Source of the DNA: Escherichia phage a20
Length of the DNA: 64,000 bases
Direction: 5' to 3' (one strand)
Sequence record: OQ067374.1
Part shown: piece after piece, positions 8,603 to 40,296 of the stretch
How positions within the stretch are numbered: the stretch's first letter is position 1
How the letters are laid out: the number at the start of each line of letters is the position of its first letter
Position numbers and translations under genes: made by a program
The notes under the pieces: generated by a model
Seen by the model: only the letters and a program-made list of their open reading frames with translations
Database searches by the model: none
Told to the model about the DNA's origin: nothing

Positions 8603-10816
8603 TTATTTGGCCGCTTCCACGGCCTTCATGAATTTAACGATTTGAGCGACCTGTTCTTTTGAAAGAGTACCACGTCGTCCCATGTATTCTGACACAATAT
8701 GATAATTGGTTTCGAATTCAATAACCATTTTATCATCATTATCGTAAGCATTATCTTTAAGCTTATCGAAAATTTTAGCACACAATTCTAACTTCTTATT
8801 CAGTTCTCTGTTAGTAGCACCTGAGAATCGATTCCATCCCCAACGATTATTTACTGTTGAAAGTTTTGCAAAATCTTTACTGATTTCTTTGTTCTTAGAG
8901 CTAAAATACTTACTAAGGAAGTTAAGCTCTTCATTACGAGTAATATGATTCAAATAAGGCTGTGCTCTACGACTTGGTGATACATACTCATCATAATCCA
9001 CTTTATCAATTAGCGTAATATAGTCATTAATTGATTTTTCGAACAAGCATTCTACTTCACCAAGTTTACGAACTTTCTTAGCAATCTGTGGACGGACTAC
9101 AGTGAACTCTTTAATACCTGACAAATCAGCAATACGAGTCAAGAAATTAGAATCATAGTTCAACCAACCTTTATCTGCGTCAAGACATTCAGCGTTAGAA
9201 CGATTACGAATTACAACATAACCTTGAATCTCATCAGCTTTACCGGCCGGAATAAAGAGATCTTCTGATACCCAAACATCGTTTTCATTCTTAAAGAACC
9301 GATGAGCACTTGGGGATTTAGGACGAGGCTGCGATGAACGTTCTTTAACTTCAATCCATGGTTTAACTAATGCAAGAATTTCAGAGGTCTTATAAAATTT
9401 AAGGCTATCACCAGCGAAAATAACCTTTAATCGTTCCAGAAGTTTCATTGCAACTTCATCTTCCGGGTTAATGAATAATACGCTACTACCCCGTCCGGAA
9501 GGAACCTTATCAACGAGTGTTGATGCATCGGTGGAAGTCAAAGCATCGTTCAGAGCACGCATCATTGGTACGCGGCCTTTCACATCGTCAATAACAATAT
9601 CAATATGCTTACGACTAATACCTAGCAGGCTATTAATTGAAATAGTTGCAGACGAGCTTCCGCTTTCACGAATACGACGAAGTCGTGGATCTGAAACGAT
9701 ATCATATACAACGCCAAGGTTGCACCATTCAGGTCCCATTTTAAAACGTTTGTACAACTCAGAATAAGTTAGTTGTTCTTTAGAATATTTCAGTGATTCA
9801 ATATTAGAACCGGCTTTTTCCATGTATTTACGAGCAGAGTAACCAAGAGAATCGATTTCACGGAATACATGACGTGGATATTCACAATCAATCCATTTCT
9901 TAGAATCTTCAGCAAATAATTTTGCATCAATTTCTGCAACACGTTTATGAATATTTGCTACTGTACGTTTATCAAATGACAATGCTTCACGAGACGGGGC
10001 TACATCTAGTTCACCCATAGGGAATTTGATATAAGCTGTAGTGCATCGCGTCATCATCCATGTTTGTTCTTTAATAACACTTCCGATTGGATATACAATA
10101 CCACCATAAACAGCCATGATATTACCACGTTCACCCCATGGAGCTTCCTTGGCCAAATATACATCGTCAAATTCAGGAAAGTATTTAATATCTTTAACAC
10201 CACGAACTTCTGCAATATCGCCGAGAGGACGCATAACATAAGCAATTTCGGATGCGAACTTTTCAAAATCTTCTGGGTTAACCGGTACAACTACTTCTAC
10301 ACCCGTACGGTCATCGGGGCCCATCTTATCTACAAAGGTTGGCTTAATTTGTGGACCTGTGTCATCTTGGTAGATTACGTAACCACGAACTTCACCGTTG
10401 TGATAAGACGTAAGGTTAAACGTATCGGTATATGCTAGTGGAGCTTTAGAGCCGAGTCCGAATCCACCAATGAAATCGTTACTCGATGTTTTAGTTGAAG
10501 CAAAATACGAGTTATAGATTCCTGGCTCTTCGTCATTACCTCGAATGGTGAAATCACTCATACCAGGACCAAAGTCTCGAACTACAAAACGCGGGTCTAA
10601 ACGACCTGGAGCCTGAACAATAAACTTATCAGTGCAACCATTAAGAATTTGTCCATCGATACAGTTTGTGATTAATTCACGTACACAAGCCAATTCTTTG
10701 TTTGTATAAAGGTCATTAGACAAAATCTTATAAACTTTACTATTGCCTTGAATAGTGAATGCTGTGCTCTTACCGCCTGAACCAATAATCGTTTCTTTAG
10801 CCGTTTCAATAATCAT
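8603..10816 (-). CDS. rIIA: rIIA protein (GHKL ATPase-like N-terminal domain)
   Basis: 737 aa; N-terminus ...ELACVRELITNCIDGQ...VVRDFGPGMS...GGFGLGSKAP (histidine-kinase-like ATPase motifs); T4 rIIA is 725 aa; adjacent to rIIB. Confidence 0.9.
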   Translation of the reverse strand: MIIETAKETIIGSGGKSTAFTIQGNSKVYKILSNDLYTNKELACVRELITNCIDGQILNGCTDKFIVQAPGRLDPRFVVRDFGPGMSDFTIRGNDEEPGIYNSYFASTKTSSNDFIGGFGLGSKAPLAYTDTFNLTSYHNGEVRGYVIYQDDTGPQIKPTFVDKMGPDDRTGVEVVVPVNPEDFEKFASEIAYVMRPLGDIAEVRGVKDIKYFPEFDDVYLAKEAPWGERGNIMAVYGGIVYPIGSVIKEQTWMMTRCTTAYIKFPMGELDVAPSREALSFDKRTVANIHKRVAEIDAKLFAEDSKKWIDCEYPRHVFREIDSLGYSARKYMEKAGSNIESLKYSKEQLTYSELYKRFKMGPEWCNLGVVYDIVSDPRLRRIRESGSSSATISINSLLGISRKHIDIVIDDVKGRVPMMRALNDALTSTDASTLVDKVPSGRGSSVLFINPEDEVAMKLLERLKVIFAGDSLKFYKTSEILALVKPWIEVKERSSQPRPKSPSAHRFFKNENDVWVSEDLFIPAGKADEIQGYVVIRNRSNAECLDADKGWLNYDSNFLTRIADLSGIKEFTVVRPQIAKKVRKLGEVECLFEKSINDYITLIDKVDYDEYVSPSRRAQPYLNHITRNEELNFLSKYFSSKNKEISKDFAKLSTVNNRWGWNRFSGATNRELNKKLELCAKIFDKLKDNAYDNDDKMVIEFETNYHIVSEYMGRRGTLSKEQVAQIVKFMKAVEAAK

Positions 10817-10828
10817 ATTTTTCTCTCA

Positions 10829-11029
10829 TCACAAGTTACGTTTAAAAATTTCTGCTACTTCAAGAAGTTCTTCTTTAGTAGCTGTATCGGTTTGTATTTT
10901 ATATCGAATTTCTTTAAAGCGTTCTTTAAAGGACTCTGCCGACTCGATATCAAAAAATCTTTGGATAAGCCGGAATTCCCGGAGCACTGCTTTATCAAAA
11001 AGTTCCAAGTCCACGTTATATGTTCTCAT
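10829..11029 (-). CDS. rIIA.1: small protein in rIIA.1 position
   Basis: ORF track, 66 aa; synteny only. Confidence 0.55.
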   Translation of the reverse strand: MRTYNVDLELFDKAVLREFRLIQRFFDIESAESFKERFKEIRYKIQTDTATKEELLEVAEIFKRNL

Positions 11030-11050
11030 AATATTCTCTTCAGTAGATTC

Positions 11051-11106
11051 CTAGGGCACTATTACTAAAGACCATATAATCTATCATCTTATGTGTAATA
11101 GTGCCT
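11051..11106. repeat. long imperfect inverted repeat (about 14-16 bp arms, ~29-nt AT-rich loop containing TATAAT) between glycosyltransferase gene and rIIA.1
   Basis: cctagggcactattac ... gtaatagtgcctcagg. Confidence 0.6.
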
Positions 11107-11121
11107 CAGGCTATTCAGGAT

Positions 11122-12222
11122 TTACGCTGTGAAGATTTTATCCCACATCGCAACAACTGCATCTCGGTTATACTTCTTCCATACTGCTTCAGCACGTTTA
11201 ACTCGAGCTTCGTATGTGTCAGTGAATTCTAATACAGCTTTTGTGTAAAGCGCAACTACTTCTTTCTTAGGAGTAGAGGAATCAATTTCTACACGCACAG
11301 TATCTGGGTCGTATTCGAATGTCGCATGAGGATAATCCTTAAAAACTAACTGGATTACAGGGACACCTTTAGAGATGGCTTCAATAGAACTATTCTCTAC
11401 CGTACCTGTGTCAGGACACGTATTAATAAGTGCTTTAGCCGTTTTAAGACGTTCCATGATTTCACTGTGTGGAGCATCAATAATAACAGGATATTTAGCT
11501 GGTGGTGCCCATTTACTAGGACAGTATCCTACACCATTTTCGCCTAGTGCTTTAATCGCTTCAAGAGCAACATCAGTACGACGCATTTTAGTGTCATAAC
11601 GTTGTGCACTAATAATCAGATCAGTCGCCGGAAGAACTTCAGGTTTCTCATTCAAACAAATAACCGGATAATCTTCGGCTTCAAACAACGGATTTGCTCG
11701 CCAATAATCATAATCGATTTTGTCAGTCAGACCTGAAGTCATATAACAATATTTGCGTTCAAATTCACGGAAGGCTTTAGTAGGAGCATAACTCTTACCG
11801 CCATTCTTATGAATTTGAATAGTCTGGTCCCAAATTTGAACAATGCCACGAGATACTGGTTCAAATGGTGTTGCCATAAAATTCTTATGAACTTTAGAGA
11901 GACCTGCGTCTTTAATTGCCTGAACGGTTAGTTTAGTCGGTTCCATAGTAACAACAAAATCGTATTCATGGATGCCGGCTAGTTCAACAATCTTACGAGC
12001 CATAGTATAACTCATACCTAGACTGAATTTAGTCAGATGACCAACAGGATGGTGTGTAACTTTCCAGTCACCAAACATGTCATTATCAAAGCCGATATAA
12101 TCAATATCGGCACCGATAGAAACTAAATATTTCAACACGTTCAAATGAACCGCTTCAAGACCACCTTGTACACGGTCAGGATTAAATGGGACTGCACGAG
12201 ATGGGATAAACATAACTTTCAT
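11122..12222 (-). CDS. putative GT-B fold glycosyltransferase (candidate DNA hmC sugar transferase)
   Basis: 366 aa; N-terminal MKVMFIP...GGLEAV...LVSIG and C-terminal ...ENSSIEAISKGVPVIQ motif typical of GT-B (GT4-like) enzymes; sits between rIIA.1 and gene 39 where T4 has gene 60/mobA. Confidence 0.55.
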   Translation of the reverse strand: MKVMFIPSRAVPFNPDRVQGGLEAVHLNVLKYLVSIGADIDYIGFDNDMFGDWKVTHHPVGHLTKFSLGMSYTMARKIVELAGIHEYDFVVTMEPTKLTVQAIKDAGLSKVHKNFMATPFEPVSRGIVQIWDQTIQIHKNGGKSYAPTKAFREFERKYCYMTSGLTDKIDYDYWRANPLFEAEDYPVICLNEKPEVLPATDLIISAQRYDTKMRRTDVALEAIKALGENGVGYCPSKWAPPAKYPVIIDAPHSEIMERLKTAKALINTCPDTGTVENSSIEAISKGVPVIQLVFKDYPHATFEYDPDTVRVEIDSSTPKKEVVALYTKAVLEFTDTYEARVKRAEAVWKKYNRDAVVAMWDKIFTA

Positions 12223-12235
12223 AATTAAGCCTTAT

Positions 12236-12266
12236 TAAAATTAAAATGAAGCTCCCGAAGGAGCTT
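12236..12266 (-). terminator. terminator-like hairpin overlapping the stop of the HNH gene
   Basis: aagctcc-cgaa-ggagctt with downstream U-rich tract on minus-strand RNA. Confidence 0.55.
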
Positions 12267-13062
12267 AGGACATCCAACACATTTTATAACCTTTGCAGGT
12301 TCTGTTAGGATTATTTAATGCTTTCAATATATTAGAAGACCCTATATCTAAATACTCTCTTAATTCATAAAGATAGTTAAAATCAATAGTTTCACCTGTT
12401 TTTACACTTGTGATTCTTATAGGCCTTCTTTCATATTTAGATTTATACAACTCTCTAGTCTTAGCTTTAGTTTCTTCCGACCTAGGAGTGTATGGTTTAA
12501 ATCCTTTTGTTTTAAATGTTTCCATTCTTGATTTAGTTATTTTATCCTGGTGTTCTTTTGTTTTTACAGGTGCTTTTCGCCCATTCTCCCAAGATAACTT
12601 GTTGGCCTGTATTATTTTATCTATTGCTTCTTGCGTATGAGTTTTACCATAAAATGGATTTAATTCGCCTATACGTTGTGAAGCAATATGTGACATTAAT
12701 TCTCTTGTTGCTTTAGTATGTTTTTTACCTTTAAATGGGTTGCCGTTTTTAGCAATCCATTCTTTCATAAATCTAGAGTGCTCTTTAGAGAATTCTTGTT
12801 TAAGCCAATCATAATCTCTAGAATTTCTAGCTCCCATGTAAAAAGCTCTAATAGCCATAAGCATAGAACGGTTCTTATGAATTTTATAAAGCAATAAATG
12901 GGCGATAAAATGCTCTCTAGGGGTCATTTTAACTAGATTTGATTTATCATTACTCCCACCCATAGATTTTGGCAATATATGATGTGTCTCAGTATAATTA
13001 GGAATAATGCTGCGGTTTTTAGCCGCAGCGATAAGTTTATCATAAATTTTACGATAATTCAT
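12265..13062 (-). CDS. HNH-family homing endonuclease (Mob-like) with NUMOD3-type repeats
   Basis: ...ETHHILPKSMGGSNDKSNLVKMTPREHFIAHLLLYKIH... plus repeated NPF(Y/K)GK(T/K)HT; start taken at MNYRKIY giving TAATG overlap with gene 39 stop. Confidence 0.8.
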   Translation of the reverse strand: MNYRKIYDKLIAAAKNRSIIPNYTETHHILPKSMGGSNDKSNLVKMTPREHFIAHLLLYKIHKNRSMLMAIRAFYMGARNSRDYDWLKQEFSKEHSRFMKEWIAKNGNPFKGKKHTKATRELMSHIASQRIGELNPFYGKTHTQEAIDKIIQANKLSWENGRKAPVKTKEHQDKITKSRMETFKTKGFKPYTPRSEETKAKTRELYKSKYERRPIRITSVKTGETIDFNYLYELREYLDIGSSNILKALNNPNRTCKGYKMCWMS

Positions 13063-14882
13063 TATCCTAGCATCCAATCTTTACGGAGTTCAGGGTCGTT
13101 ACCCATGAGCATTTCAAATAGTTCTTTCCAATTTTCAGGAAGTTTAACTACGTCGTACACAGGGTTTTGAATCATTTCTTTATATTCATCTCGCTGAAGT
13201 GAGCCCAATCCCTTGATGTATCGAATACTATGCTTAGGCAGTGTATCTTTAGCTTCTTCATACTCAGCTACAGTATAAAACCATTTTTGAGTTTTGCCAA
13301 TTTGTGCAATAATTACAGGCGTTTTAACAAAGCGAATACGTCCTTGTTCAAACAATTCAGGCCAATTACTAAAGAAAGCAAGCAAAGCTGGATAGATACT
13401 TCCAAGACCGTCATGATCGGCATCGGTCATAATTGCAATATTACGATAGTTCGTATTCTCTGCCTTTTCACCAAGAATAAGACCTGTGATAGCACAGATA
13501 TCAAAGAGCTCTTTGTTCTTCATCATATCAGCATATGACATACCCCAGCTATTCATCACCTTACCACGTAATGGGAATCCGCCGTGTAGTTCACGGTCAC
13601 GAACATCAATGAGATAACCAATTGCCGAATCACCTTCTGTTAAAAACAATGTCGTATCTGCATCTTTACCACATTGGTTAGCTTTAATATGCTTATGAAC
13701 CTTAGCTTTAGTTGCCTTTTTAGCTGCTTTAGTTTCTGCAGCCTTTTCTGCCGCCAATTTACGAGCTAATGCTGCTTCAACAATAGGCATAATCAAGGCT
13801 TCGTTTTTAAGAAGTGCCTGAGCAATTTTCTTAGCATCTAATTGGATATGATTACGAATATCACCATACGTTGACGTTAAACGTTCTTTAGTCTGAGAAT
13901 CAAAACGCATGTTGCTCATGTCTCTAATAAACATCAACATTGTGAGACATTCTTTAACACGAGCTTTAGTGACTTCAATACCCTTATATTTCTTTTTAAT
14001 ACCCGGCAAAAGATGTTCACAGATATCATCCATTACACATTCAACATGATGACCACCGTTTTTAGTATGGATGTTATTCACATAAGTTAAATGACGGAAG
14101 CCATCTGGTGATGTTGTGAATGCTATAGAGACTTTATCATTTTCTTGAATGATGTTATCTTCACCAAATTGTTTAGCAAATCGTTTAAAATTACCATCAA
14201 CCTTTTTACCATTAAATGTGAACTTGATATCAGGATAAACGACTGCCAATGTTTGAAGTCGGTCTAAAGTAATATCTAAATAAATTTGAGATAAATTATG
14301 CTCTTCAAATGAAGAGAAATCAGGAGTGAAGATTACTTTAGTGCCTTTACCTTTAGATTTCTTAGAAGACCATGATTTGTTTTCCATTCCGTTTGAACAG
14401 TTAACAGTGATTTCATTTTCGCCATCTGACGTGATGCCTGTAAACAACGTAGAGAAGATATTAGTTAAACTACTCCCGACGCCGTTCATACCACCAGTCT
14501 TGCGTTCAGAGTCATCACCAAAGTTACCACCAGCCTTTGGAATAGTCCAGGCTGCTACAGGCCCAGGAATTTGTTCACCTGTTTGGTCGGTAACTAAACC
14601 TTGAGGAATACCACGTCCGTTATCTTCCACCGAAACTTGATTATTTTTAATTTGCACATCAATTTTATTTGCAAACTTAAATGATGTACGAATAGCTTCA
14701 TCAACCGAGTTGTCAATAATCTCATCGATTAATTTAACCAGACCAGGAACATATTCAACTTGTTGATATTTACCAAACAAAAAACGCTCGTGTGCTTCTT
14801 TAGCCGAAGAACCAATATACATACCACTACGTTTCTTAATATGTTCTACATCTGACAATACCTTAATTTCATTTTTAATCAT
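13062..14882 (-). CDS. 39: DNA topoisomerase II large subunit, unsplit (gp39 fused with gp60-equivalent C-terminus)
   Basis: 606 aa; GyrB-like ATPase motifs (EIIDNSVDEA, VEDNGRGIP, GGxxGxG region) then TOPRIM region LFLTEGDSA...MTDADHDGLGS; one continuous ORF, no gene 60 split. Confidence 0.92.
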   Translation of the reverse strand: MIKNEIKVLSDVEHIKKRSGMYIGSSAKEAHERFLFGKYQQVEYVPGLVKLIDEIIDNSVDEAIRTSFKFANKIDVQIKNNQVSVEDNGRGIPQGLVTDQTGEQIPGPVAAWTIPKAGGNFGDDSERKTGGMNGVGSSLTNIFSTLFTGITSDGENEITVNCSNGMENKSWSSKKSKGKGTKVIFTPDFSSFEEHNLSQIYLDITLDRLQTLAVVYPDIKFTFNGKKVDGNFKRFAKQFGEDNIIQENDKVSIAFTTSPDGFRHLTYVNNIHTKNGGHHVECVMDDICEHLLPGIKKKYKGIEVTKARVKECLTMLMFIRDMSNMRFDSQTKERLTSTYGDIRNHIQLDAKKIAQALLKNEALIMPIVEAALARKLAAEKAAETKAAKKATKAKVHKHIKANQCGKDADTTLFLTEGDSAIGYLIDVRDRELHGGFPLRGKVMNSWGMSYADMMKNKELFDICAITGLILGEKAENTNYRNIAIMTDADHDGLGSIYPALLAFFSNWPELFEQGRIRFVKTPVIIAQIGKTQKWFYTVAEYEEAKDTLPKHSIRYIKGLGSLQRDEYKEMIQNPVYDVVKLPENWKELFEMLMGNDPELRKDWMLG

Positions 14883-31440: not shown

Positions 31441-31803
31441 TTAAAAGAATTTAAATTTTTTCTTGGTTCGTTCATTAAAAGCTTGTTGTACTTGCATTGT
31501 AACACATTTTTCAACATGTGGTGCAAGTTCTGCTTTTCTGTCCTGGTCAAGAACTGCAAAGTCCATTACGATTTTACCATCAACCCAGTCTAGTTTTGTA
31601 ATATAGACTATATGATGGGAACCGTCTTCAAGTGTAATCAGAATCTCTTGAATGACATTTTCCATTGCTGAACGGATAATTTTAAGAGATTCATTAAACA
31701 CTCGTTCTTTGCGAATGTCTTCCCCTTCCGAAGAAGGGGATTCATCAACGATTTCTAGATTTAAATCATCGAGATTATTCATCGAAATCTTCCATTTCGT
31801 CAA
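31441..31803 (-). CDS. 40: gp40-position protein (head vertex assembly chaperone in T4)
   Basis: 120 aa; synteny between uvsX and 41; no motif verified. Confidence 0.55.
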   Translation of the reverse strand: MTKWKISMNNLDDLNLEIVDESPSSEGEDIRKERVFNESLKIIRSAMENVIQEILITLEDGSHHIVYITKLDWVDGKIVMDFAVLDQDRKAELAPHVEKCVTMQVQQAFNERTKKKFKFF

Positions 31804-32947
31804 GGTCGTTTTCTATATCTGCTGCAGACGGAGCATCAGAAGTTTTAACCGGAACTTTAGTTGTTGCTTTGCAATTAATAAGGTCATTAACAGCGTCATC
31901 AACTTCTTTAATAGAAGAGATAGCACCTAGTTTATATTTAGTTTCAATTGCATCTCGGAAAGGTTTGTGTTTAAACAAAGGTCCCCAGAATTCTACACAA
32001 TCAGTAGCTTTAGCACGCCATGATTTCTCTTCACGAATCATTTCACCTGTTTCTTCGTCAAGGAATTCGCGAGCATACCAACCGGCTTTAGGCTTAACTA
32101 CAAAACCAATTTCAGTTGCCATTTCTAACAAGCCACTGAATGGGTCAATACCGCCATCAAAATTAACCGTGATCGGGAAAGTAGATTTCTCTTTAACTGT
32201 GCGAGATTTTTCTGCTTTCAACGTGAAGTCATAACCGGTCAATTCTGTACCTTCTTTAACCTGACGTTTAGAGATAAAAAATACCGTGTTGGCAGAATAA
32301 AGAATACCTGTACCACCGCCCATAATCTCTTTAGGATACAATCCGCCAATTTCCATTGCTGTATGGTTAATTGCAACACACGGAATATCTTTAATAGTCA
32401 GATACGGGGTCACAATGCGGAACAGAGATTTAAGTGCCTTAGCACGAGACATATCACCTACAACTTTCTCGTTCAATGCATCTTCGGTTTCTTTCTTAGA
32501 TGCAGTATTACCAATCGAGTCAATAAAGATAATAACTTTATCACCGCGTTCAATAGCGTCAAGCTGATTAGTCATATCGACTTTAAGTTGTTCGACAGAT
32601 TGAATCGGAGTATGAACTACACGGTCTAAATCAACACCCATTGAACGAAAATAAGATTCTGAAGCACCGAATTCTGAGTCATAAAACAAACAGATTGCAT
32701 CTTTATATTTCTTCATATACGCTGCAACCATAGTCAGCCCAAACAACGTTTTAAAGTGTTTAGAAGGAGCAGCAAAAATAGTTAAGCCTGATTGCAACCC
32801 TGCATTCAGTGCACCACCTAATGCAATATTCAACATCGGAATACGAGTAGGGACTTCATCACGATTATTAAACAGCTTAGACTTAGTCAAGTCTGCAGTC
32901 ATTTTAGAAGTAGAAGCTTTAATCAGACGAGATTTTAAATCAGACAT
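31775..32947 (-). CDS. uvsX: UvsX recombinase (RecA/Rad51 family)
   Basis: 390 aa; ...GLTIFAAPSKHFKT (Walker A-like) ...; T4 UvsX 391 aa. Confidence 0.92.
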   Translation of the reverse strand: MSDLKSRLIKASTSKMTADLTKSKLFNNRDEVPTRIPMLNIALGGALNAGLQSGLTIFAAPSKHFKTLFGLTMVAAYMKKYKDAICLFYDSEFGASESYFRSMGVDLDRVVHTPIQSVEQLKVDMTNQLDAIERGDKVIIFIDSIGNTASKKETEDALNEKVVGDMSRAKALKSLFRIVTPYLTIKDIPCVAINHTAMEIGGLYPKEIMGGGTGILYSANTVFFISKRQVKEGTELTGYDFTLKAEKSRTVKEKSTFPITVNFDGGIDPFSGLLEMATEIGFVVKPKAGWYAREFLDEETGEMIREEKSWRAKATDCVEFWGPLFKHKPFRDAIETKYKLGAISSIKEVDDAVNDLINCKATTKVPVKTSDAPSAADIENDLDEMEDFDE

Positions 32948-33045: not shown

Positions 33046-33594
33046 TTAACGAGCCCATTTGATGATTTCTGTAATCAAAACATTACGTTCGCTTGCATTA
33101 AATCCTATAACTTTGTTAGCACCATCATGATTAAGTAATTGATACGTTTGGATTTTGTTATGAATTGCAAACTCTTCAAAATGTGAAATGACTGTATTAA
33201 AACCGAATGAAGACAAAGTAATAAGGTCGTCTTCAAAACTTTCAGTCATTTCGTTACGTGTTAAAATAATTGTGAACACATCATGGTTTTGGCAAAGACG
33301 AACATAATCCTGTTCATAAACGTCAAGAACCGAGTCCGCATCTTGTCGAATACGTCCATAAACCCAGTTACTAATATATCCACGGTCTAACAGATAAATC
33401 TTAGTAGGGTCTAAATAATTCAACATCGTTTCGAAACAGCCAACTTCATTTCGAGACTTAACATCGAAACGTCCATCAACTGTTCGTTTAGGGAAATCAA
33501 TCTTTACATATCTTTCACTAATTTCCATTATGTCATTAATGAAAGTTGTTTTACCAGCATTATCCGGGCCATCTACTAAAATAATTTTAGCCAT
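33046..33594 (-). CDS. P-loop nucleotide/nucleoside monophosphate kinase-like protein (thymidylate-kinase-like)
   Basis: 182 aa; Walker A LVDGPDNAGKTT and LLDRGYIS (DR-Y motif) as in dNMP/thymidylate kinases. Confidence 0.55.
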   Translation of the reverse strand: MAKIILVDGPDNAGKTTFINDIMEISERYVKIDFPKRTVDGRFDVKSRNEVGCFETMLNYLDPTKIYLLDRGYISNWVYGRIRQDADSVLDVYEQDYVRLCQNHDVFTIILTRNEMTESFEDDLITLSSFGFNTVISHFEEFAIHNKIQTYQLLNHDGANKVIGFNASERNVLITEIIKWAR

Positions 33595-33595
33595 T

Positions 33596-34495
33596 TTATT
33601 CCTCGATTACGACATCTTCATATTTAGGTATATTATACGGTGAAGAAATTAAAGCATTAAAGTAGATGAACTCACCAAGACCTGGATGAAATACTTCTTC
33701 AGGATTTTCGAAATATTGAATCTTCGGACGTCCTTTAAGAATTTGATAGTATTCAGTTTTAGTTGGTTTAAAAATTCGAATCAACGCTTCTTCAGGATAC
33801 TTATTTCTGTCGAAGCTATTATTTGGATCGGTTATATAAAGCGGTTGGCCTAATTGAATTGCACATTCAACCACTTGTTCAAAACGATAGCATGGGTCAC
33901 TAATTCGAAATGGATGAAAAATACCATCTAGATGAATAGGAGCCAAATCACCTACAAGACGCTGCATGATGGAAGGACGTATAACTTTCTGCGTTACGAT
34001 AATCTTATTACCATCTGCACCTGCGTTAACCAGCACTTCTTTTTGACGTTCATTCAACACAGTAGTTTGAAGTGAACGATTAACCGACAACATATCGGTT
34101 TTTAAGAATTCGTCAATATAAAAACGTGGTTTATTAGGGTCTGCAGTGATATTGAAATTGAATTCTACATCAAAAGCGCCGTCATATCCGGTGATATCTG
34201 TGATTAGAAAATCACAATCATAATAAGCAATTAATGAATCAACCACAAATTCATTTTCAGTCCAGAAATATTTACGAGTGTTATACGCGTTATCTTTATA
34301 CCATAATGGAACAAACTTAAATTCTGGGAAAAGACGTTCACATTCTTTAATATCAGATGCATTACGTGGATATGTAATCACATCACCTGGATTAGCACGG
34401 TGCAAATGAAGTTGGAAGTTGCCATCCTTAAGGATAGCATACTGCCCAGTTTCATAAGACCGCATACTCAAAATAGGTACGCGGAAAATAGCCAT
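33596..34495 (-). CDS. protein of unassigned family occupying the T4 beta-glucosyltransferase position (candidate DNA-modifying transferase)
   Basis: 299 aa; no motif recognised; adjacent to the hydroxymethylase; T4 has bgt between uvsX and 42. Confidence 0.5.
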   Translation of the reverse strand: MAIFRVPILSMRSYETGQYAILKDGNFQLHLHRANPGDVITYPRNASDIKECERLFPEFKFVPLWYKDNAYNTRKYFWTENEFVVDSLIAYYDCDFLITDITGYDGAFDVEFNFNITADPNKPRFYIDEFLKTDMLSVNRSLQTTVLNERQKEVLVNAGADGNKIIVTQKVIRPSIMQRLVGDLAPIHLDGIFHPFRISDPCYRFEQVVECAIQLGQPLYITDPNNSFDRNKYPEEALIRIFKPTKTEYYQILKGRPKIQYFENPEEVFHPGLGEFIYFNALISSPYNIPKYEDVVIEE

Positions 34496-35211
34496 TAGTC
34501 AAGGAATCCTTTAACATAATCAAAATCACGTTCAAACACATGGGCACTTACCATGGTATGAGTATAATCACCAACTTCTACACCACATTCGTTAGCGATA
34601 TAATGAAGTAATTTTCCTTGGAGATAAAAATCCAACTGCATAACAACAGCACAGTTCTGAGAACGCATATGACAGTGGGTATAAAGCTTACCATCACGAA
34701 TATAATAAGTCACTGAGTCAGTACATGGATATTCAAGAGTTTCGTCCGAATCAAGCAAAGCCTGATCAGAACTTTCTAGAATTTGGAACACAACTCTTCG
34801 AGAGTTAGGCTTCTCTTTAAGTTCTTTTAGAAGAGCTGGTAATTGGGCCGCAATGCGAGGACCATAGAAAGTGTTGAAGTTCGCCGGCAAAACATCTGAT
34901 TTTGGTTTAGAAATAAATTTAGCGACATTAGGATATGCCTTAAACGCTTCTTCTGCGTTGGTACCACCAGAAATCATAAACTTCCAGAAGTCTTCGGCAT
35001 ATTCATAAGAGATGCGGTTAATACGTGGGTCAGTCATTTTGAATGATGATGGAGTGTCAACAACTACTGTCATAGACCCAATTTCATTACAACGTCCAAT
35101 ACGAGAATCAGTTACGAATTCCGGGTTTTCTAAAATTTCACGATTGACTGCTTTAAATGCGGTTTGAAAATCTGCGGCTTTGATATATTTCATTGTGTTA
35201 TGTTTTCCCAT
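34495..35211 (-). CDS. 42: thymidylate-synthase-superfamily pyrimidine hydroxymethylase (gp42-like, divergent)
   Basis: 238 aa; ...KPNSRRVVFQI...EYPCTDSVTYYIRDGKLYTHCHMRSQN... (catalytic Cys context and R-S-x-N/D region of TS/dCMP-HMase fold); position of T4 gene 42. Confidence 0.7.
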   Translation of the reverse strand: MGKHNTMKYIKAADFQTAFKAVNREILENPEFVTDSRIGRCNEIGSMTVVVDTPSSFKMTDPRINRISYEYAEDFWKFMISGGTNAEEAFKAYPNVAKFISKPKSDVLPANFNTFYGPRIAAQLPALLKELKEKPNSRRVVFQILESSDQALLDSDETLEYPCTDSVTYYIRDGKLYTHCHMRSQNCAVVMQLDFYLQGKLLHYIANECGVEVGDYTHTMVSAHVFERDFDYVKGFLD

Positions 35212-35253: not shown

Positions 35254-35493
35254 TTATTTGAATTTCTTAGCGATGTTGATATAACGTAAAGCTTCAGCAT
35301 CGATACTTCCAAGAACACTATGAAGAAATGCATCAGCGTAGTATTCCAATTGAACAGGTTCTTTAATCACTTTAGCCGCTTTGGTTCCAAACAGGCCCAT
35401 AAGGGCCTTTTTAAGAATTTGTTCATTAGTGTTCAGTTTCATAGTCAAAATCTCTTCATTAAGTTGGTGGTTAAAAGTTTTTCTAGAAATCAT
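35254..35493 (-). CDS. hypothetical small protein
   Basis: ORF track, 79 aa. Confidence 0.45.
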   Translation of the reverse strand: MISRKTFNHQLNEEILTMKLNTNEQILKKALMGLFGTKAAKVIKEPVQLEYYADAFLHSVLGSIDAEALRYINIAKKFK

Positions 35494-36650
35494 TCTGGGT
35501 ACCTCAAAGCGTCATCAGAGTTAGTTATATCAATAATAGATATAGAATTTTCTGATAACCCATTTTTAGATAACTGACGTTTATAATATCTTTCACAATA
35601 TGTACACGTCGTCCCGCAGATTTCATTAGCACAATCGAAATCTGGATGTCTGAACCACCTTTTTTCTAAAAAGCCATCTAACAAAGAGGTTTCAATATTT
35701 ACTGTATGTGAAAACTCAGTTTCGTTTTCAAGAGTGAAAATAGTCTCTAAAGGCTTCCACAGTTCTAACAAATTACCTTCAAACTTTTCAGAAGCGTATG
35801 CTTCAAGAACTTTCAAAATGTAGTCTGTGCTACCTGTACGTCCTGAAACTTTGAATTGAGTGATACCAATATCATTATAAAGTTTCAAATCTTGAGGACG
35901 AACAAAACGAGTTCTCAACCAGTTAAATGGGTCTGTATCACGAGCTTTAATGCAGTGTTGCATTGGATATCCGTTTAAGGATTTAGCATCATCAGCTGTA
36001 ACATCAGTACTATGGAAAATATAGCAAGAGTCACGATAGCTACAATGTGTTGTATACCCTTTACCAGCATTAGAACAGAACTCATTTACAAGAACTTCAA
36101 ATATTATATTGTTCTTATTGCAAAACTCTGCTGCACGCTTCAGGAAAGAAACTGAACGGTTCTTATGAATTCCACAGCAGACCTTTTTGATATTATATTG
36201 GTCATGCAAGTATTTGATTTGAGTTACAGCATCGACATGTAGAATTGTTGAAACTTCAATCTCAATGTCTTTATTGACTTCACGAACAATTTCCATAACA
36301 ACAGGGTTAGCGATAGTAATACGCCATACGCCTATTGACCAAAGATACTGAACATAATCCTGAATAGCTTTCTTCTTCCACTCAACTAGTTCTCTTTTTG
36401 AACCAGGATTTATCGTGTTGAGTGTATAGTTAAAGCAAATACCTAATTCGTTACAACGTTTAACGTAATCTTCTAACATCTTTTTGTCAACGTCAGGAAG
36501 CCTAAAATCAGGTCTGGCTGCTACAAAAGCCATTTCTCTTGTAGAGCCGTATACTTCGTTTATCAAGCTATTAGGATAAGTTTTATTGAGCTCTACGATT
36601 TTATCAAGAAGAGCTAAATCAAAATTCGTTCCAATTTTAAAAGTATTCAT
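35490..36650 (-). CDS. Cys-rich putative Fe-S enzyme of unassigned family
   Basis: 386 aa; clusters KKVCCGIH, EFCSNAGKGYTTHCSYRDSCY and C-terminal DCANEICGTTCTYCERYY (contains a CxxxCxxC spacing). Confidence 0.5.
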   Translation of the reverse strand: MNTFKIGTNFDLALLDKIVELNKTYPNSLINEVYGSTREMAFVAARPDFRLPDVDKKMLEDYVKRCNELGICFNYTLNTINPGSKRELVEWKKKAIQDYVQYLWSIGVWRITIANPVVMEIVREVNKDIEIEVSTILHVDAVTQIKYLHDQYNIKKVCCGIHKNRSVSFLKRAAEFCNKNNIIFEVLVNEFCSNAGKGYTTHCSYRDSCYIFHSTDVTADDAKSLNGYPMQHCIKARDTDPFNWLRTRFVRPQDLKLYNDIGITQFKVSGRTGSTDYILKVLEAYASEKFEGNLLELWKPLETIFTLENETEFSHTVNIETSLLDGFLEKRWFRHPDFDCANEICGTTCTYCERYYKRQLSKNGLSENSISIIDITNSDDALRYPE

Positions 36651-36707: not shown

Positions 36708-37097
36708 TTATAGATTCGGTTTATATGATTTAAATGTTTCGAATTCGCCTTTATTCATAAGAGCTTTGAATTCGTCAGGACGCATAGCTTTGTCGTCGAT
36801 AATCCAATCATATACTGGTTTATGTGTTAGCAAATTATGGTACTTCAAACCAATGTTTTCCAAGTTCTGAATCAGACTTGGGAGAATGTCAATTGCTATA
36901 CGTCCAGGACCTACTGACTTCATACCGCGAGCAGTGTAAAGCGTTATGGTATGCCCTGCATCATACAGAGCATTAATAGCAGTCACCATTTCGACGTCTG
37001 GTTTGAAGTTCACGTAATCACGATTGTTATTCCACTCTGTTATACAATCATCGACGTCCACGCAAAGATGTAATGGTTTCATAGCAATATCCTTCAA
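36708..37097 (-). CDS. small HAD-superfamily phosphatase
   Basis: 129 aa; motif I LCVDVDDCIT (DxDx[T/V]), ITLYTAR, and K...IIDD; start may be the ATG 15 nt downstream. Confidence 0.6.
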   Translation of the reverse strand: MKDIAMKPLHLCVDVDDCITEWNNNRDYVNFKPDVEMVTAINALYDAGHTITLYTARGMKSVGPGRIAIDILPSLIQNLENIGLKYHNLLTHKPVYDWIIDDKAMRPDEFKALMNKGEFETFKSYKPNL

Positions 37098-37809
37098 TAG
37101 AATTTTTAATATTATCAGCTATACGCTTTCTAGGAATACCCGTTTTCTTTTCAGCTATCCTAAGAGATTCATAGTAATTTTCGTTTATTTTAACAAATTT
37201 TTGAGACTTGTGAGCATTTTTGCTTTCGTCCTGATATCGATAATTAAGATATTTAGGCGATTTTACTCTCTTTTGAATCGTGGCAGAAGATATACCCAAA
37301 TCTTTAGCCGCTTCCCGACAGGATTCATAATATTTGCCATCTACATTAATCTTTAGACCATGTAATGCAGGTTTACCATACCTCCTGTGCTTTTCTTTAC
37401 CCCTAGCTATAGATTCAGCTGACAAAGTTTTACCCCATCTTGGGTTTTTATCACCAACTAAACGTCCTTTATTTGCCTTAGAAATTTTATCCTTGGACCT
37501 TTGGGATAACCCGTCAGAACCGCCTTCGCCACCAGTTTTAAGATTGTAATAATTTGGGTCTTTAACTATGTCTAATGTTATTAGAGCCTTTTCAGCTATT
37601 TTTAATTCTTCTCTCGAGCTATGGTAGGAAATGATTTCTTTAAGAAAATTTTCCTTCCCGTATTTCCTTTCAGCCTTTTTATATAATTTACCAGAACCTT
37701 TATATAAATCTAAAGGCTCGGCTTCTTCAGCCGAGTGCATTCCTAAATAAACTTTACCGTTTATAAGATTAGTAGTTTTGTAGAGATAATGTATCAAATT
37801 CGTTCCCAT
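37048..37809 (-). CDS. GIY-YIG homing endonuclease (Seg-like)
   Basis: 253 aa; N-terminal HYLYKTTNLINGKVYLGMHS...YKGSG (GIY-YIG module), basic DNA-binding C-terminal region; overlaps both neighbours. Confidence 0.8.
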   Translation of the reverse strand: MGTNLIHYLYKTTNLINGKVYLGMHSAEEAEPLDLYKGSGKLYKKAERKYGKENFLKEIISYHSSREELKIAEKALITLDIVKDPNYYNLKTGGEGGSDGLSQRSKDKISKANKGRLVGDKNPRWGKTLSAESIARGKEKHRRYGKPALHGLKINVDGKYYESCREAAKDLGISSATIQKRVKSPKYLNYRYQDESKNAHKSQKFVKINENYYESLRIAEKKTGIPRKRIADNIKNSIEGYCYETITSLRGRR

Positions 37810-39479
37810 TGATGAGTGATATCGCCACCGATTGGACGATAGGAAACACCAGTTTCTTTATCAGTTAGTACCCATTTACCAGGATTTTTTGTAATCAGAG
37901 TAGCCGTTACAGGTTCTGCTACGTCATAACTAATAGAGCCGTCTTGAAGTACACGGCCCATATTACGTAATTGCTTAGTCAGAAGTTCCATACCTTTATA
38001 ATATGCGGCTACCGCTTTAAGTGGATTATTCTTGAAATAACCACCTAATGCAATCCAGATAATTGCCACTGCCAAATGATGATACTCGTTAAACGAACTC
38101 ATCTTTCCATATTTGTAAACTAATGGATTGATGTTAATAGTCACATTACAAGTTGTTTCATCAATAGTAAACTGTCCCCAGGTCGGATTAGCATTGAATT
38201 CATCATAACCTGAAACAGCATAAAGCACTTTAGCTTCATCATACAATTTTGGCCCGTAAATCTTGGTTTCGCCAAAATATCCACGAGGGTCGATAAACTT
38301 AACTTCGCCGTTATCAGTAATCATAGTATTACTGAAGTTCGGGTCACCATGAATAACAGAGTACTGTCCCTGAGAACGGTTATGATAACGAATAAGATGT
38401 TCTAAAGCTTGTTTCAGCATTGGCTTCAGACGTCCAATCTTAGTGTAGTTCACATGTGTGATTTTACCAAATGAATCAATCAATGGTTGAATGCTTTCAC
38501 AACGATCAATAACTTTCGTATAGAATTCTTTAGTGAAATCACGACGAACAGTTTCAGGACTTACAAAATAAGTGTCTGTGCTGAATTTCAGTGCATCTAA
38601 AATTGTATCAACAATTTGTGGACGAGCAAGACTTGATTTGGATTTAATATATTCAAATGCCGGCTTACCTTTAATGCGTTCCATTTCAAAGTTATTTTCA
38701 TTAACAGAAACTAACTGAGGGACTGAATCTGATTTCACTTTCAAATACCACGAAATCTCATCTTTCTGAAGAGCTCGGCCCTGTTCGGTTAATGCGAATT
38801 TAGTTACAGTTTCTTCACCGATTTCAACTGCATTAAAACTACGATTAAGTTCACGAACTTCATGAGCTTTTTCAAGTTTAGGCATATCACCTAAATCAAT
38901 TAGATTCATAAGCTCTGATTTATTGAATGCGCCGCTGTAAAGGAATTCTACGAAATCACGTCCTTTGCAGTATTCATGAATTTCTTCATCAGTAGAACCC
39001 ATATAGAATTCCCAGTCTTTGAACTGATAAATTCCTACAACATTACCACCTGTTGAACCTACGTTAGTGATATTTTCACCGTCGAAATTATATCGACATT
39101 CGTCGCCCTTAACATAGATTGCGTTAACATTCCAAGACCATGAACCAAAATCGGGAATAATATCACACCAGTTAACAATTACATTATGGCCGTCTAAATC
39201 TTTGTGTAATTTAGCAAGAGCATAAGCAGATCCATACGCTTCATCAACTGTACGAATAGTCACATTGAACCCTTCTTGCTCACAATAAGCTCGAACAGTT
39301 TCAGCAAATTTTGAATGAACTACTACAATAATTTCATCTGCGCCTAGGTCAGAATAAATTGTATACAAATTGCTCAGAATAGTGTCTTGTTTATAGTTAA
39401 CAAGCACCTTAGGAATATGGTGAGTAATTGGATATAAACGAGTTGCCAGTCCAGCACCAAGAATAACAGCTTTTTTCAT
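37794..39479 (-). CDS. bifunctional sugar-1-phosphate nucleotidyltransferase (N-terminal) / APH-ChoK-type kinase (C-terminal)
   Basis: 561 aa; N-term MKKAVILGAGLATRLYPIT...PKVLV (G-x-G-x-x-R-L nucleotidyltransferase signature, LicC/RmlA-like); C-term HGDPNFSNTMIT...VKFIDPRGY (Brenner HxDxxxxN and DxxG of aminoglycoside/choline kinase fold). Confidence 0.7.
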   Translation of the reverse strand: MKKAVILGAGLATRLYPITHHIPKVLVNYKQDTILSNLYTIYSDLGADEIIVVVHSKFAETVRAYCEQEGFNVTIRTVDEAYGSAYALAKLHKDLDGHNVIVNWCDIIPDFGSWSWNVNAIYVKGDECRYNFDGENITNVGSTGGNVVGIYQFKDWEFYMGSTDEEIHEYCKGRDFVEFLYSGAFNKSELMNLIDLGDMPKLEKAHEVRELNRSFNAVEIGEETVTKFALTEQGRALQKDEISWYLKVKSDSVPQLVSVNENNFEMERIKGKPAFEYIKSKSSLARPQIVDTILDALKFSTDTYFVSPETVRRDFTKEFYTKVIDRCESIQPLIDSFGKITHVNYTKIGRLKPMLKQALEHLIRYHNRSQGQYSVIHGDPNFSNTMITDNGEVKFIDPRGYFGETKIYGPKLYDEAKVLYAVSGYDEFNANPTWGQFTIDETTCNVTININPLVYKYGKMSSFNEYHHLAVAIIWIALGGYFKNNPLKAVAAYYKGMELLTKQLRNMGRVLQDGSISYDVAEPVTATLITKNPGKWVLTDKETGVSYRPIGGDITHQWERI

Positions 39480-39520: not shown

Positions 39521-39664
39521 CTAGTTAAAGCATTCATACTTTGCTTGTAGTCCAATCATAATCCATCCAATTACAAGTGTTGGAATCATTACCGGAGCCG
39601 TTAAGCTCCAGTAGATAGTCATGACAAGCATCAATAGTAAAAGTCCTATTGCTATTGCTTTCAT
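39521..39664 (-). CDS. small hydrophobic membrane peptide (47 aa) between the sugar-isomerase gene and the fused kinase gene
   Basis: Hand-translated MKAIAIGLLLLMLVMTIYWSLTAPVMIPTLVIGWIMIGLQAKYECFN; TAATG overlap with SIS gene stop; imm-like position. Confidence 0.4.
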   Translation of the reverse strand: MKAIAIGLLLLMLVMTIYWSLTAPVMIPTLVIGWIMIGLQAKYECFN

Positions 39665-40296
39665 TATTCGCCTCGTAACATGGCACCTAGTGCACCACCA
39701 GGGTGGAACTTAAGGAAATCATTAGAGGTAAATCCACGTTCAGACGAAAGGTTGATAGCAAACGTATCGATAAGCGCTAACAACAATGTAGTGGACATAG
39801 TCGGAGCCAGAGAATTCTCATCAACCTCTACTGCGATGCCTGTACAGAAAGAGTAATCAAAAAGGGCTTCATTTTCTTGTGGAATGTCTGGGTTACAATG
39901 CAACAGAATCTGTTTGACGTTCGGACGAATCATTTTAAGATGCTTAGCCACGCCTATCATTTCTTCAGTTTTACCAGAACGACTAATATGAATCAACACA
40001 TCATTAGGCGCAATGAATCCTGCATCACCGTGAGAATAATGCCCAGTGTTCAAGTACATACTCGGGATACCTAGTGAAGCAAAAGTCTCGGAAGCTTTAG
40101 TTGCGATATTAGCATTCTTACCAACACCTGTAATAATTACTCGGCTTTCATAATTACTAAGTCCCGGGCGTCGAAGAGTTTCTAGAATAGCATTATAACG
40201 AGCAGGGTTTTGACTAATTACTTTGGCCATAGCGGCCAAAGAAGAAGCTTGTTTTATGATTGCGTCAATAGCGATAGTAATAGGAGTAGTTTTCAT
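39664..40296 (-). CDS. single-domain SIS sugar-phosphate isomerase, KdsD/GutQ-type (arabinose-5-phosphate isomerase-like)
   Basis: 210 aa; VIITGVGKNANIATKASETFASLGIPSMYLN...SHGDAGFIAPNDVLIHISRSGKTEE...LAPTMSTTLLLAL...GFTSNDFLKFHPGGALG closely parallels KdsD core motifs; lacks CBS domains. Confidence 0.8.
   Translation of the reverse strand: MKTTPITIAIDAIIKQASSLAAMAKVISQNPARYNAILETLRRPGLSNYESRVIITGVGKNANIATKASETFASLGIPSMYLNTGHYSHGDAGFIAPNDVLIHISRSGKTEEMIGVAKHLKMIRPNVKQILLHCNPDIPQENEALFDYSFCTGIAVEVDENSLAPTMSTTLLLALIDTFAINLSSERGFTSNDFLKFHPGGALGAMLRGE

Follow-up and report, generated by a model that had tools for sequence, protein, structure and literature searches.

We analysed a 64,000-nucleotide (nt) stretch of the genome of Escherichia phage a20 (OQ067374.1; hereafter, the window), with the focus on an open reading frame (ORF) at 11122..12222 that starts with an ATG on the minus strand and encodes a 366-amino acid (aa) protein. 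This protein is, very probably, a GT-B glycosyltransferase, the Mosigvirus orthologue of ORF003c (gp3) of phage RB69, that adds the second arabinofuranose (Araf) to the phage DNA in a full 5-hydroxycytosine (5hoC) pathway. The orthology, the GT-B fold, the finding that the complete pathway is encoded in the window and the nesting of the family's distribution come from the present analysis; the sugar chemistry, the binding of uridine diphosphate (UDP) and the DNA-directed activity of paralogues with 40-43% identity come from the literature; from these, we infer that the second step is performed by the 366-aa protein itself.

11122..12222, minus strand: proposed second (beta-1,3) DNA arabinofuranosyltransferase, a 366-aa protein of the GT-B type orthologous to RB69 ORF003c/gp3 and to the glycosyltransferase of phage HY126 (PDB 9IQZ/9IR0)

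In 166 phage records, genomes of RB69-like Mosigvirus match the locus with 95-99% identity at the DNA level, and the phage itself is, by its sequence, an RB69-like Mosigvirus. The 366-aa protein is identical to RB69 ORF003c (gp3, RB69p003, NP_861693), which is of equal length, in 362 of the 366 positions, and is ~99% identical across residues 1-366 to the protein in PDB entries 9iqz ('phage HY126 glycosyltransferase', the apo form) and 9ir0 ('phage HY126 glycosyltransferase with UDP'), both released on 2025-07-16. The HY126 glycosyltransferase structure presumably comes from the same study as that of the HY126 ThyA-like enzyme, to judge from the neighbouring accession codes, and the latter crystal structure is credited to He et al. 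2026 in a citing paper. Over its entire length (1-366 of 366), the protein also matches phrog_8302, a family labelled 'unknown function' (E 4.5e-222). Four substitutions separate it from each of the RB69 and HY126 proteins, and all three are alike in length, in the position next to rIIA.1 and in the accompanying genes for 5hoC arabinosylation. By sequence, position and co-occurrence with the pathway, the 366-aa protein is a member of the RB69 ORF003c/gp3-HY126 orthologous group.

The codon differences from the RB69 gene, 23 synonymous against 4 non-synonymous, together with the crystal structure of a ~99% identical protein, indicate that this is a real, constrained gene. Its same-strand neighbours are rIIA (8603..10816) and rIIA.1 (10829..11029; Pfam T4_RIIA1, 2e-30). 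The original prediction, made from the sequence alone, placed the gene between rIIA.1 and gene 39. The rIIA.1 side of this assignment is correct, but gene 39, which encodes the large subunit of topoisomerase II in unsplit form (606 aa; 13062..14882, minus strand), does not abut the transferase gene because a gene for a 270-aa HNH/NUMOD3 homing endonuclease intervenes. Thus, the order in the window is rIIA, rIIA.1, the transferase, the HNH insertion and 39, in contrast to rIIA, rIIA.1, ORF003c and 39 in RB69, where no endonuclease or other gene separates ORF003c from gene 39. Outside the insertion, the junctions flanking the transferase gene are nearly identical to those of RB69, with a single difference in 151 bp on the rIIA.1 side. 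The predicted difference from T4 was borne out as well: the corresponding slot in T4 holds 60, 60.1 and mobA.

The assignment to the GT-B class was upheld by fold comparison, by the structural model and by the published HHpred analysis of RB69 ORF003c (PMC6024577). An AlphaFold model of the protein built from 12 sequences superimposes on 9IQZ with a TM score of 0.97; it replaced an earlier 6-sequence run with pLDDT 65.8, in which residues 115-188 were not resolved and the TM score to 9iqz was 0.73. In the model, two domains of Rossmann-like beta/alpha/beta architecture enclose a cleft between them, so that the protein is predicted to adopt a GT-B fold nearest to GT4-type enzymes. In structure, it comes closest to GT4/GT5 enzymes of the retaining type, including sucrose-phosphate synthase (6KIH), BshA, BGluT, PimA/PimB', WaaG/WaaB and MshA, with identity of just 10-14%, and the best non-phage neighbours act on lipids, lipopolysaccharide (LPS) or small molecules. 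By analogy with the ~99% identical protein of the entry entitled 'with UDP', the 366-aa transferase probably binds a UDP donor.

The sequence strings initially quoted in favour of this fold are all present, namely, MKVMFIP (residues 1-7), GGLE (residues 20-23) and IEAISKGVPVIQ (residues 280-291). However, the E-x7-G motif that had been read into the last of these is not: the actual spacing is E276-x4-E281-x4-G286-x-P288-V-I. The canonical GT4 motif in the C-terminal domain is E-x7-E. In the 366-aa protein, E276-x4-E281 takes its place, with G273 in the x7 position before E281. Other differences from the GT4-type enzymes are the proposed acceptor, a sugar on DNA, and the beta linkage assigned to the product.

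Profile searches detected little. The protein had no match in Pfam at E<=1 and none in NCBIfam at E<=0.01, and a profile made from 14 family members and compared to PDB retrieved HY126 as the only transferase; the other PDB matches (transcriptional regulator, ThiJ, DapB; E 0.003 or worse) were discarded as Rossmann-like noise. Across the 14 members, Pfam glycosyltransferase models came up below the threshold (GT4-conflict at 0.0028 in two members, Glyco_trans_1_4 at 0.013 and Glycos_transf_1 at 0.048), and the 366-aa protein does not significantly match the sequence models of CAZy GT4 or Pfam Glycos_transf_1. Lack of GT-B similarity in a profile search had been named in the original prediction as a reason to abandon it; such was the outcome with HMMER, but the fold comparison and the published HHpred result agree with GT-B.

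The rest of the arabinosylation pathway is encoded between uvsX (31775..32947) and the DNA polymerase gene 43 (40337..43048):

33046..33594, minus strand: 182-aa protein resembling nucleotide kinases, located where RB69 has gp45 (RB69p045, 'thymidylate kinase'); weak dTMP-kinase match, presumptive role
33596..34495, minus strand: 299-aa partner glycosyltransferase in the beta-gt slot, unsplit orthologue of RB69 gp46:47 (~98-99% identical); proposed first (base-proximal, alpha) arabinosyltransferase
34495..35211, minus strand: 238-aa ThyA-like 5-hydroxy-dCMP synthase (236/238 identical to RB69 gp48; Pfam Thymidylat_synt), predicted to make the acceptor base
35490..36650: U32-peptidase-like ORF
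36708..37097, minus strand: 129-aa sugar phosphatase of the HAD type, located where RB69 has gp51 (RB69p051, by synteny), analogue of HY126 AfhF; proposed to convert Araf-1,5-P2 to Araf-1-P
37794..39479, minus strand: 561-aa bifunctional nucleotidyltransferase/kinase matching RB69 ORF53_52c, analogue of HY126 AfhE; proposed to act in UDP-arabinose synthesis
39664..40296, minus strand: 210-aa SIS-domain protein (Pfam SIS, 1e-10) at the position of RB69 gp55 (RB69p055, annotated as arabinose-5-phosphate isomerase), adjoining gene 43

As originally noted, the 299-aa ORF occupies the beta-gt slot, between the gene-42 analogue and uvsX. The protein is identical to RB69 ORF047c, which corresponds to its N-terminal part, in 178 of 181 positions, and in tblastn covers RB69 046+047 at 99.0%; it is 46% identical to gp79 of Acinetobacter phage DLP3 and has no detectable similarity to the 366-aa transferase (E 3.1). 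The ThyA-like protein is near-identical to PDB 9iqc/9ir2/9iqu. In a BLAST alignment with E. coli ThyA (approximate sequence), Ala is aligned with D169 and Asn with S167, but the alignment is ambiguous at this point: with a shift by one residue within RSQNC, residues 183-187 of the phage protein (RS-QN against RS-CD), it would yield the published D169N signature of 5-hydroxy-dCMP (5hodCMP) synthases. The protein is assigned to these enzymes by its 99% identity to RB69 gp48 instead. The HAD protein matches the NCBIfam model for the EcbF-BcbF capsule biosynthesis phosphatase at 1.1e-13, below the curated cut-off. The 561-aa protein, equal in length to the corrected RB69 ORF53_52c, contains an N-terminal Pfam NTP_transferase domain and gives weak kinase-like matches in the C-terminal part. 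For HY126, UDP-Araf synthesis by AfhE and AfhF is reported according to a citing paper, and the role of the HAD phosphatase is described in PMC13326640.

The chemistry expected of such a gene set is known from RB69. In RB69 DNA, Thomas et al. 2018 detected arabinose, and with custom hidden Markov models (HMMs), HHpred and Phyre2 they picked out ORF003c as a candidate arabinosyltransferase of the GT-B type (PMC6024577). Lee et al. 2026 (Nucleic Acids Research, NAR) revised this chemistry and showed that the base is 5-hydroxycytosine and that RB69 DNA is mono- and di-arabinosylated, the di-arabinosyl nucleoside being beta-D-Araf-(1->3)-alpha-D-Araf-5-hydroxy-dC (PMC13326640). In the same work, gp48 is marked as experimentally confirmed for the conversion of dCMP to 5hodCMP (Table 1), RB69p003 is labelled 'beta-arabinosyltransferase 2', and the addition of the first sugar by gp46:47 and then of the second one by gp3 is proposed (PMC13326640). 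The possibility of a two-sugar modification, raised when the two transferase genes were first noticed, agrees with this structure and with the two sequential transferases proposed. The other option considered at that point, an alpha/beta division of labour on separate residues as in T4, is contradicted by the RB69 chemistry (PMC13326640), and the assumption of a hydroxymethylcytosine (hmC) acceptor has to be dropped: the base is 5-hydroxycytosine, the sugar is arabinofuranose, and the ThyA-like protein in the window is 99% identical to the 5hodCMP-making gp48.

The window accordingly can be read as encoding the following route. The ThyA-like enzyme (34495..35211) would make 5-hydroxy-dCMP, which replaces dC in the DNA, as published for the 99% identical RB69 gp48. 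The cluster beside gene 43 (SIS isomerase, kinase/nucleotidyltransferase and HAD phosphatase) would, by orthology, turn a pentose phosphate into UDP-D-arabinofuranose. The 299-aa transferase (33596..34495) is proposed to put the first alpha-Araf on the cytosine 5-hydroxyl, and the 366-aa transferase, as proposed in the literature, would add the second Araf to the first in a beta-(1->3) linkage, from UDP-Araf and after replication. The product, di-arabinosyl-5-hydroxycytosine, would shield the DNA from host nucleases.

In tblastn searches, the 366-aa family was found in 211 phage records (~155 Escherichia/Shigella phages of the Mosigvirus type at >=95%, 55 Acinetobacter phages and 1 Tegunavirus), nested within the 348 records with the 299-aa first transferase, which is additionally present in phages of Klebsiella, Serratia, Enterobacter, Proteus, Yersinia and Edwardsiella, in Dhakavirus and in Shewanella phage Thanatos. 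Because of this nesting, the 366-aa family is an add-on to the core pathway, a distribution that fits a role in the second step. In three phages with published sugar numbers, the number of family copies equals the number of arabinoses minus one: none in Thanatos with one sugar, one in RB69 with two and two in DLP3 with three. Two copies were found in each of the 15 Acinetobacter phages among the matches listed.

The two DLP3 copies, gp77 (42.6% identity) and gp76 (40%), labelled beta-arabinosyltransferases 2/3, are full-length homologues of the 366-aa transferase that lie inside the DLP3 modification cluster. They share with it the invariant R208, R214 and E281 and the near-invariant E276; residues invariant across the family further include G142, N267, T268, T274, A282 and G286, and G20 is near-invariant. 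Both are DNA-directed and use UDP-Araf in vitro: with UDP-Araf as the donor, purified gp76 and gp77 together attached a third arabinose to the already arabinosylated DNA of RB69, and the individual DLP3 transferases were inactive on 5hoC-DNA (PMC13326640). DLP3 thus differs from the Mosigvirus phages in that it has two paralogues per genome, located in the modification cluster rather than beside rIIA and both needed in vitro, and in that its DNA carries three arabinoses instead of two.

When 1.84 billion representative proteins were searched exhaustively with the family profile, 11 family representatives emerged, so the family is very small, and among these 11 there was no sequence bridge to bacterial GT4 families; a word-indexed search gave 5 clusters. 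The most distant detectable relative is encoded on a 15-kb Logan contig (SRR24908209_33372, 8001-9110; E 4.7e-4, 19% identity). Its neighbours match PF18723 (5-hmdU DNA kinase domain), PF18724 (ADDT) and, in two cases, AdoMet-decarboxylase-like proteins, with a weak match to inositol-1-phosphate synthase. To judge from these Pfam families, this looks like a thymidine hypermodification locus, which may also use a GT-B transferase. Another irregular case is Shigella phage JK45 (MK962757.1, 2523-4123), where the transferase match is broken into two parts over 1.6 kb that together score higher than a single copy, and where two hypothetical proteins are annotated, which suggests an insertion in the transferase gene or a partial duplication.

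Orthology, fold, the title of the UDP-complex structure, the biochemistry of the paralogues and the phyletic distribution jointly support a role of the 366-aa transferase in the second step. Several observations weigh against this assignment. Sequence HMMs yield no significant match to any glycosyltransferase family. The literature searched, which did not extend to the primary accounts of Mahler 2025 and He 2026, reports neither a direct assay nor a knockout for RB69 gp3 or for the 366-aa protein itself, and the second step is worded there as 'proposed' (PMC13326640). Neither DLP3 paralogue is active alone (PMC13326640), so that a second step catalysed by a single enzyme in Mosigvirus is an assumption. 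Finally, a beta linkage is assigned to the 366-aa transferase and an alpha linkage to the first sugar, although the enzymes closest in structure are of the retaining kind. If one UDP-D-Araf donor anomer serves both the 299-aa and the 366-aa transferases, the presence of an alpha and a beta linkage implies that one of the two must invert. That the 366-aa protein is the one, and so an arabinofuranosyltransferase that inverts on a scaffold of the retaining clan, with the unusual E-x4-E and a glycan on duplex DNA as the acceptor, is a speculative proposal that we consider rather unlikely.

Among the alternatives, the one closest to the second-step assignment reverses the order of the transferases, such that the 366-aa protein would be the first, base-proximal arabinosyltransferase acting directly on 5-hydroxycytosine, and the 299-aa protein would do something else. 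Thomas et al. 2018 indeed put ORF003c, at that time the only candidate, as the arabinosyltransferase of the final step (PMC6024577). This reversal appears improbable, given that tblastn (E<=1e-3) found no family member in many phage groups in which the 5hoC/arabinose cluster occurs together with the 299-aa transferase, among them the mono-pentosylated Thanatos; that the DLP3 paralogues acted on arabinosylated DNA, and no single DLP3 transferase did so on 5hoC-DNA (PMC13326640); and that universal synteny with the 5hodCMP synthase holds only for the 299-aa gene. Still less probable, to a degree that makes it a marginal prospect, is the transfer of sugar to a non-DNA acceptor such as host LPS, lipid or protein, in the manner of PimA, WaaG/WaaB or BshA. 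The substrates of the top non-phage structural neighbours (lipids, LPS and small molecules) and the label of phosphatidylinositol mannosyltransferase in one GenBank record speak for such an activity, but, by the counts per genus, the hosts of the family (Escherichia/Shigella phages of the Mosigvirus types and Acinetobacter phages) all carry the cytosine-arabinosylation cluster as well, both DLP3 copies are located inside that cluster, the DLP3 paralogues modify DNA in vitro (PMC13326640), and the family is tiny compared with the 1.84 billion proteins searched.

The least credible of the alternatives, which we practically discount, is that the 366-aa protein transfers a hexose (glucose) to hmC like the T4 alpha- and beta-glucosyltransferases, as the label 'DNA alpha-glucosyltransferase' attached to some of its homologues in GenBank would have it. 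The T4 enzymes (alpha, PDB 1Y6F/1XV5, and beta) use UDP-glucose as the donor and the hydroxyl of hmC as the acceptor, whereas UDP-arabinofuranose and a sugar on 5hoC are proposed for the 366-aa transferase. The gene-42 analogue in the window, 99% identical to gp48, is a counterpart of a reported 5-hydroxy-dCMP synthase rather than of an hmC synthase (PMC13326640), and RB69 DNA has arabinose on 5hoC, with neither hmC nor glucose reported (PMC6024577, PMC13326640), so that the published MS/NMR of RB69 nucleosides contradicts this reading. The T4 alpha-glucosyltransferase ranks only 36th among the structural neighbours of the 366-aa protein, with 10% identity, and the beta-glucosyltransferase is outside the top 60. 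Thus, the window does not provide a dCMP hydroxymethylase to supply an hmC acceptor, and the 366-aa protein shows no sequence or closest-fold kinship with the T4-type enzymes.

The identification of this enzyme is not new, as a candidate function for RB69 ORF003c was published in 2018, the HY126 crystal structure was released in 2025 and the pathway model appeared in 2026; the gene described here is one more near-identical copy of a previously studied phage enzyme. Arabinosylated 5-hydroxycytosine is nevertheless a phage DNA hypermodification that has been clarified only recently, and the number of arabinoses appears to alter which host defences stay effective. In a T4 paper that cites Mahler et al. 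2025, phage Bas46 with a deletion of the 'arabinosyltransferase Aat' is described as sensitised to a plasmid-borne defence; Bas46 and Bas47 are described as doubly arabinosylated; and papers citing Mahler 2025 state that arabinosylated 5hoC gives protection from restriction enzymes, DNA glycosylases and some CRISPR systems. As the likely determinant of the second sugar, the 366-aa transferase matters for predicting the defence sensitivity of Mosigvirus therapeutic phages. The practical value lies in the correct annotation of a gene that is mostly listed as 'hypothetical protein' and sometimes as an alpha-glucosyltransferase or mannosyltransferase. The GenBank names are indeed inconsistent: apart from the hypothetical proteins, the gene is called 'DNA alpha-glucosyltransferase' in HX01 and several Acinetobacter phages, GDP-mannose-dependent phosphatidylinositol mannosyltransferase in one record and 'glycosyltransferase' in NRG-P0074.

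The remaining features of the window concern the surroundings of the transferase gene and the homing endonucleases inserted next to it and in the pathway cluster:

12249..12266, minus strand: GC-rich hairpin with a UUCG loop (AAGCTCCTTCGGGAGCTT) followed by a T-rich run; putative terminator-like site
12265..13077, minus strand: 270-aa HNH/NUMOD3 homing endonuclease, a clean ~800-bp insertion in the last codons of gene 39 compared to RB69
37048-37809, minus strand: 253-aa GIY-YIG/NUMOD1 seg-like free-standing homing endonuclease, flanked by the genes for the HAD phosphatase and the 561-aa NTP-transferase/kinase

The hairpin lies 26 nt upstream of the start codon of the 366-aa transferase gene and overlaps the stop codon that ends the upstream ORF; RB69 has the identical sequence, placed immediately after the stop of gene 39. 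A promoter scan around the transferase gene was at the chance level, with 10 found against 9.2 expected. A second, longer hairpin, with arms GGCACTATTA and TAATAGTGCC and an internal stem-loop of ~30 nt, occupies the 92-nt gap (11030-11121) between the stop codon of the transferase gene and the start of rIIA.1 on the minus strand. Its predicted folding energy (dG) is -28.6 kcal/mol, with a z-score of -4.1 relative to shuffled sequences, and it is conserved in RB69 with the exception of one base that results in an A.C mismatch in the RB69 stem.

The HNH endonuclease gene overlaps gene 39 at 13062-13077. As a result of the insertion, the gene 39 product now ends in ...KDWMLG*, and the endonuclease, which re-uses the old gene 39 stop codon, ends in ...CWMS*. 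The insertion has a GC content of 0.319 against 0.370 for the window. At least 80% of a 2.3-kb query that includes the insertion was covered in only 19 of the 166 related records, so the endonuclease appears to be variably present among the relatives. The equivalent site in T4 is occupied by a defective HNH gene, mobA. The GIY-YIG endonuclease gene similarly overlaps both of its neighbours in the pathway cluster by a few codons, and RB69 has no gene at that place.

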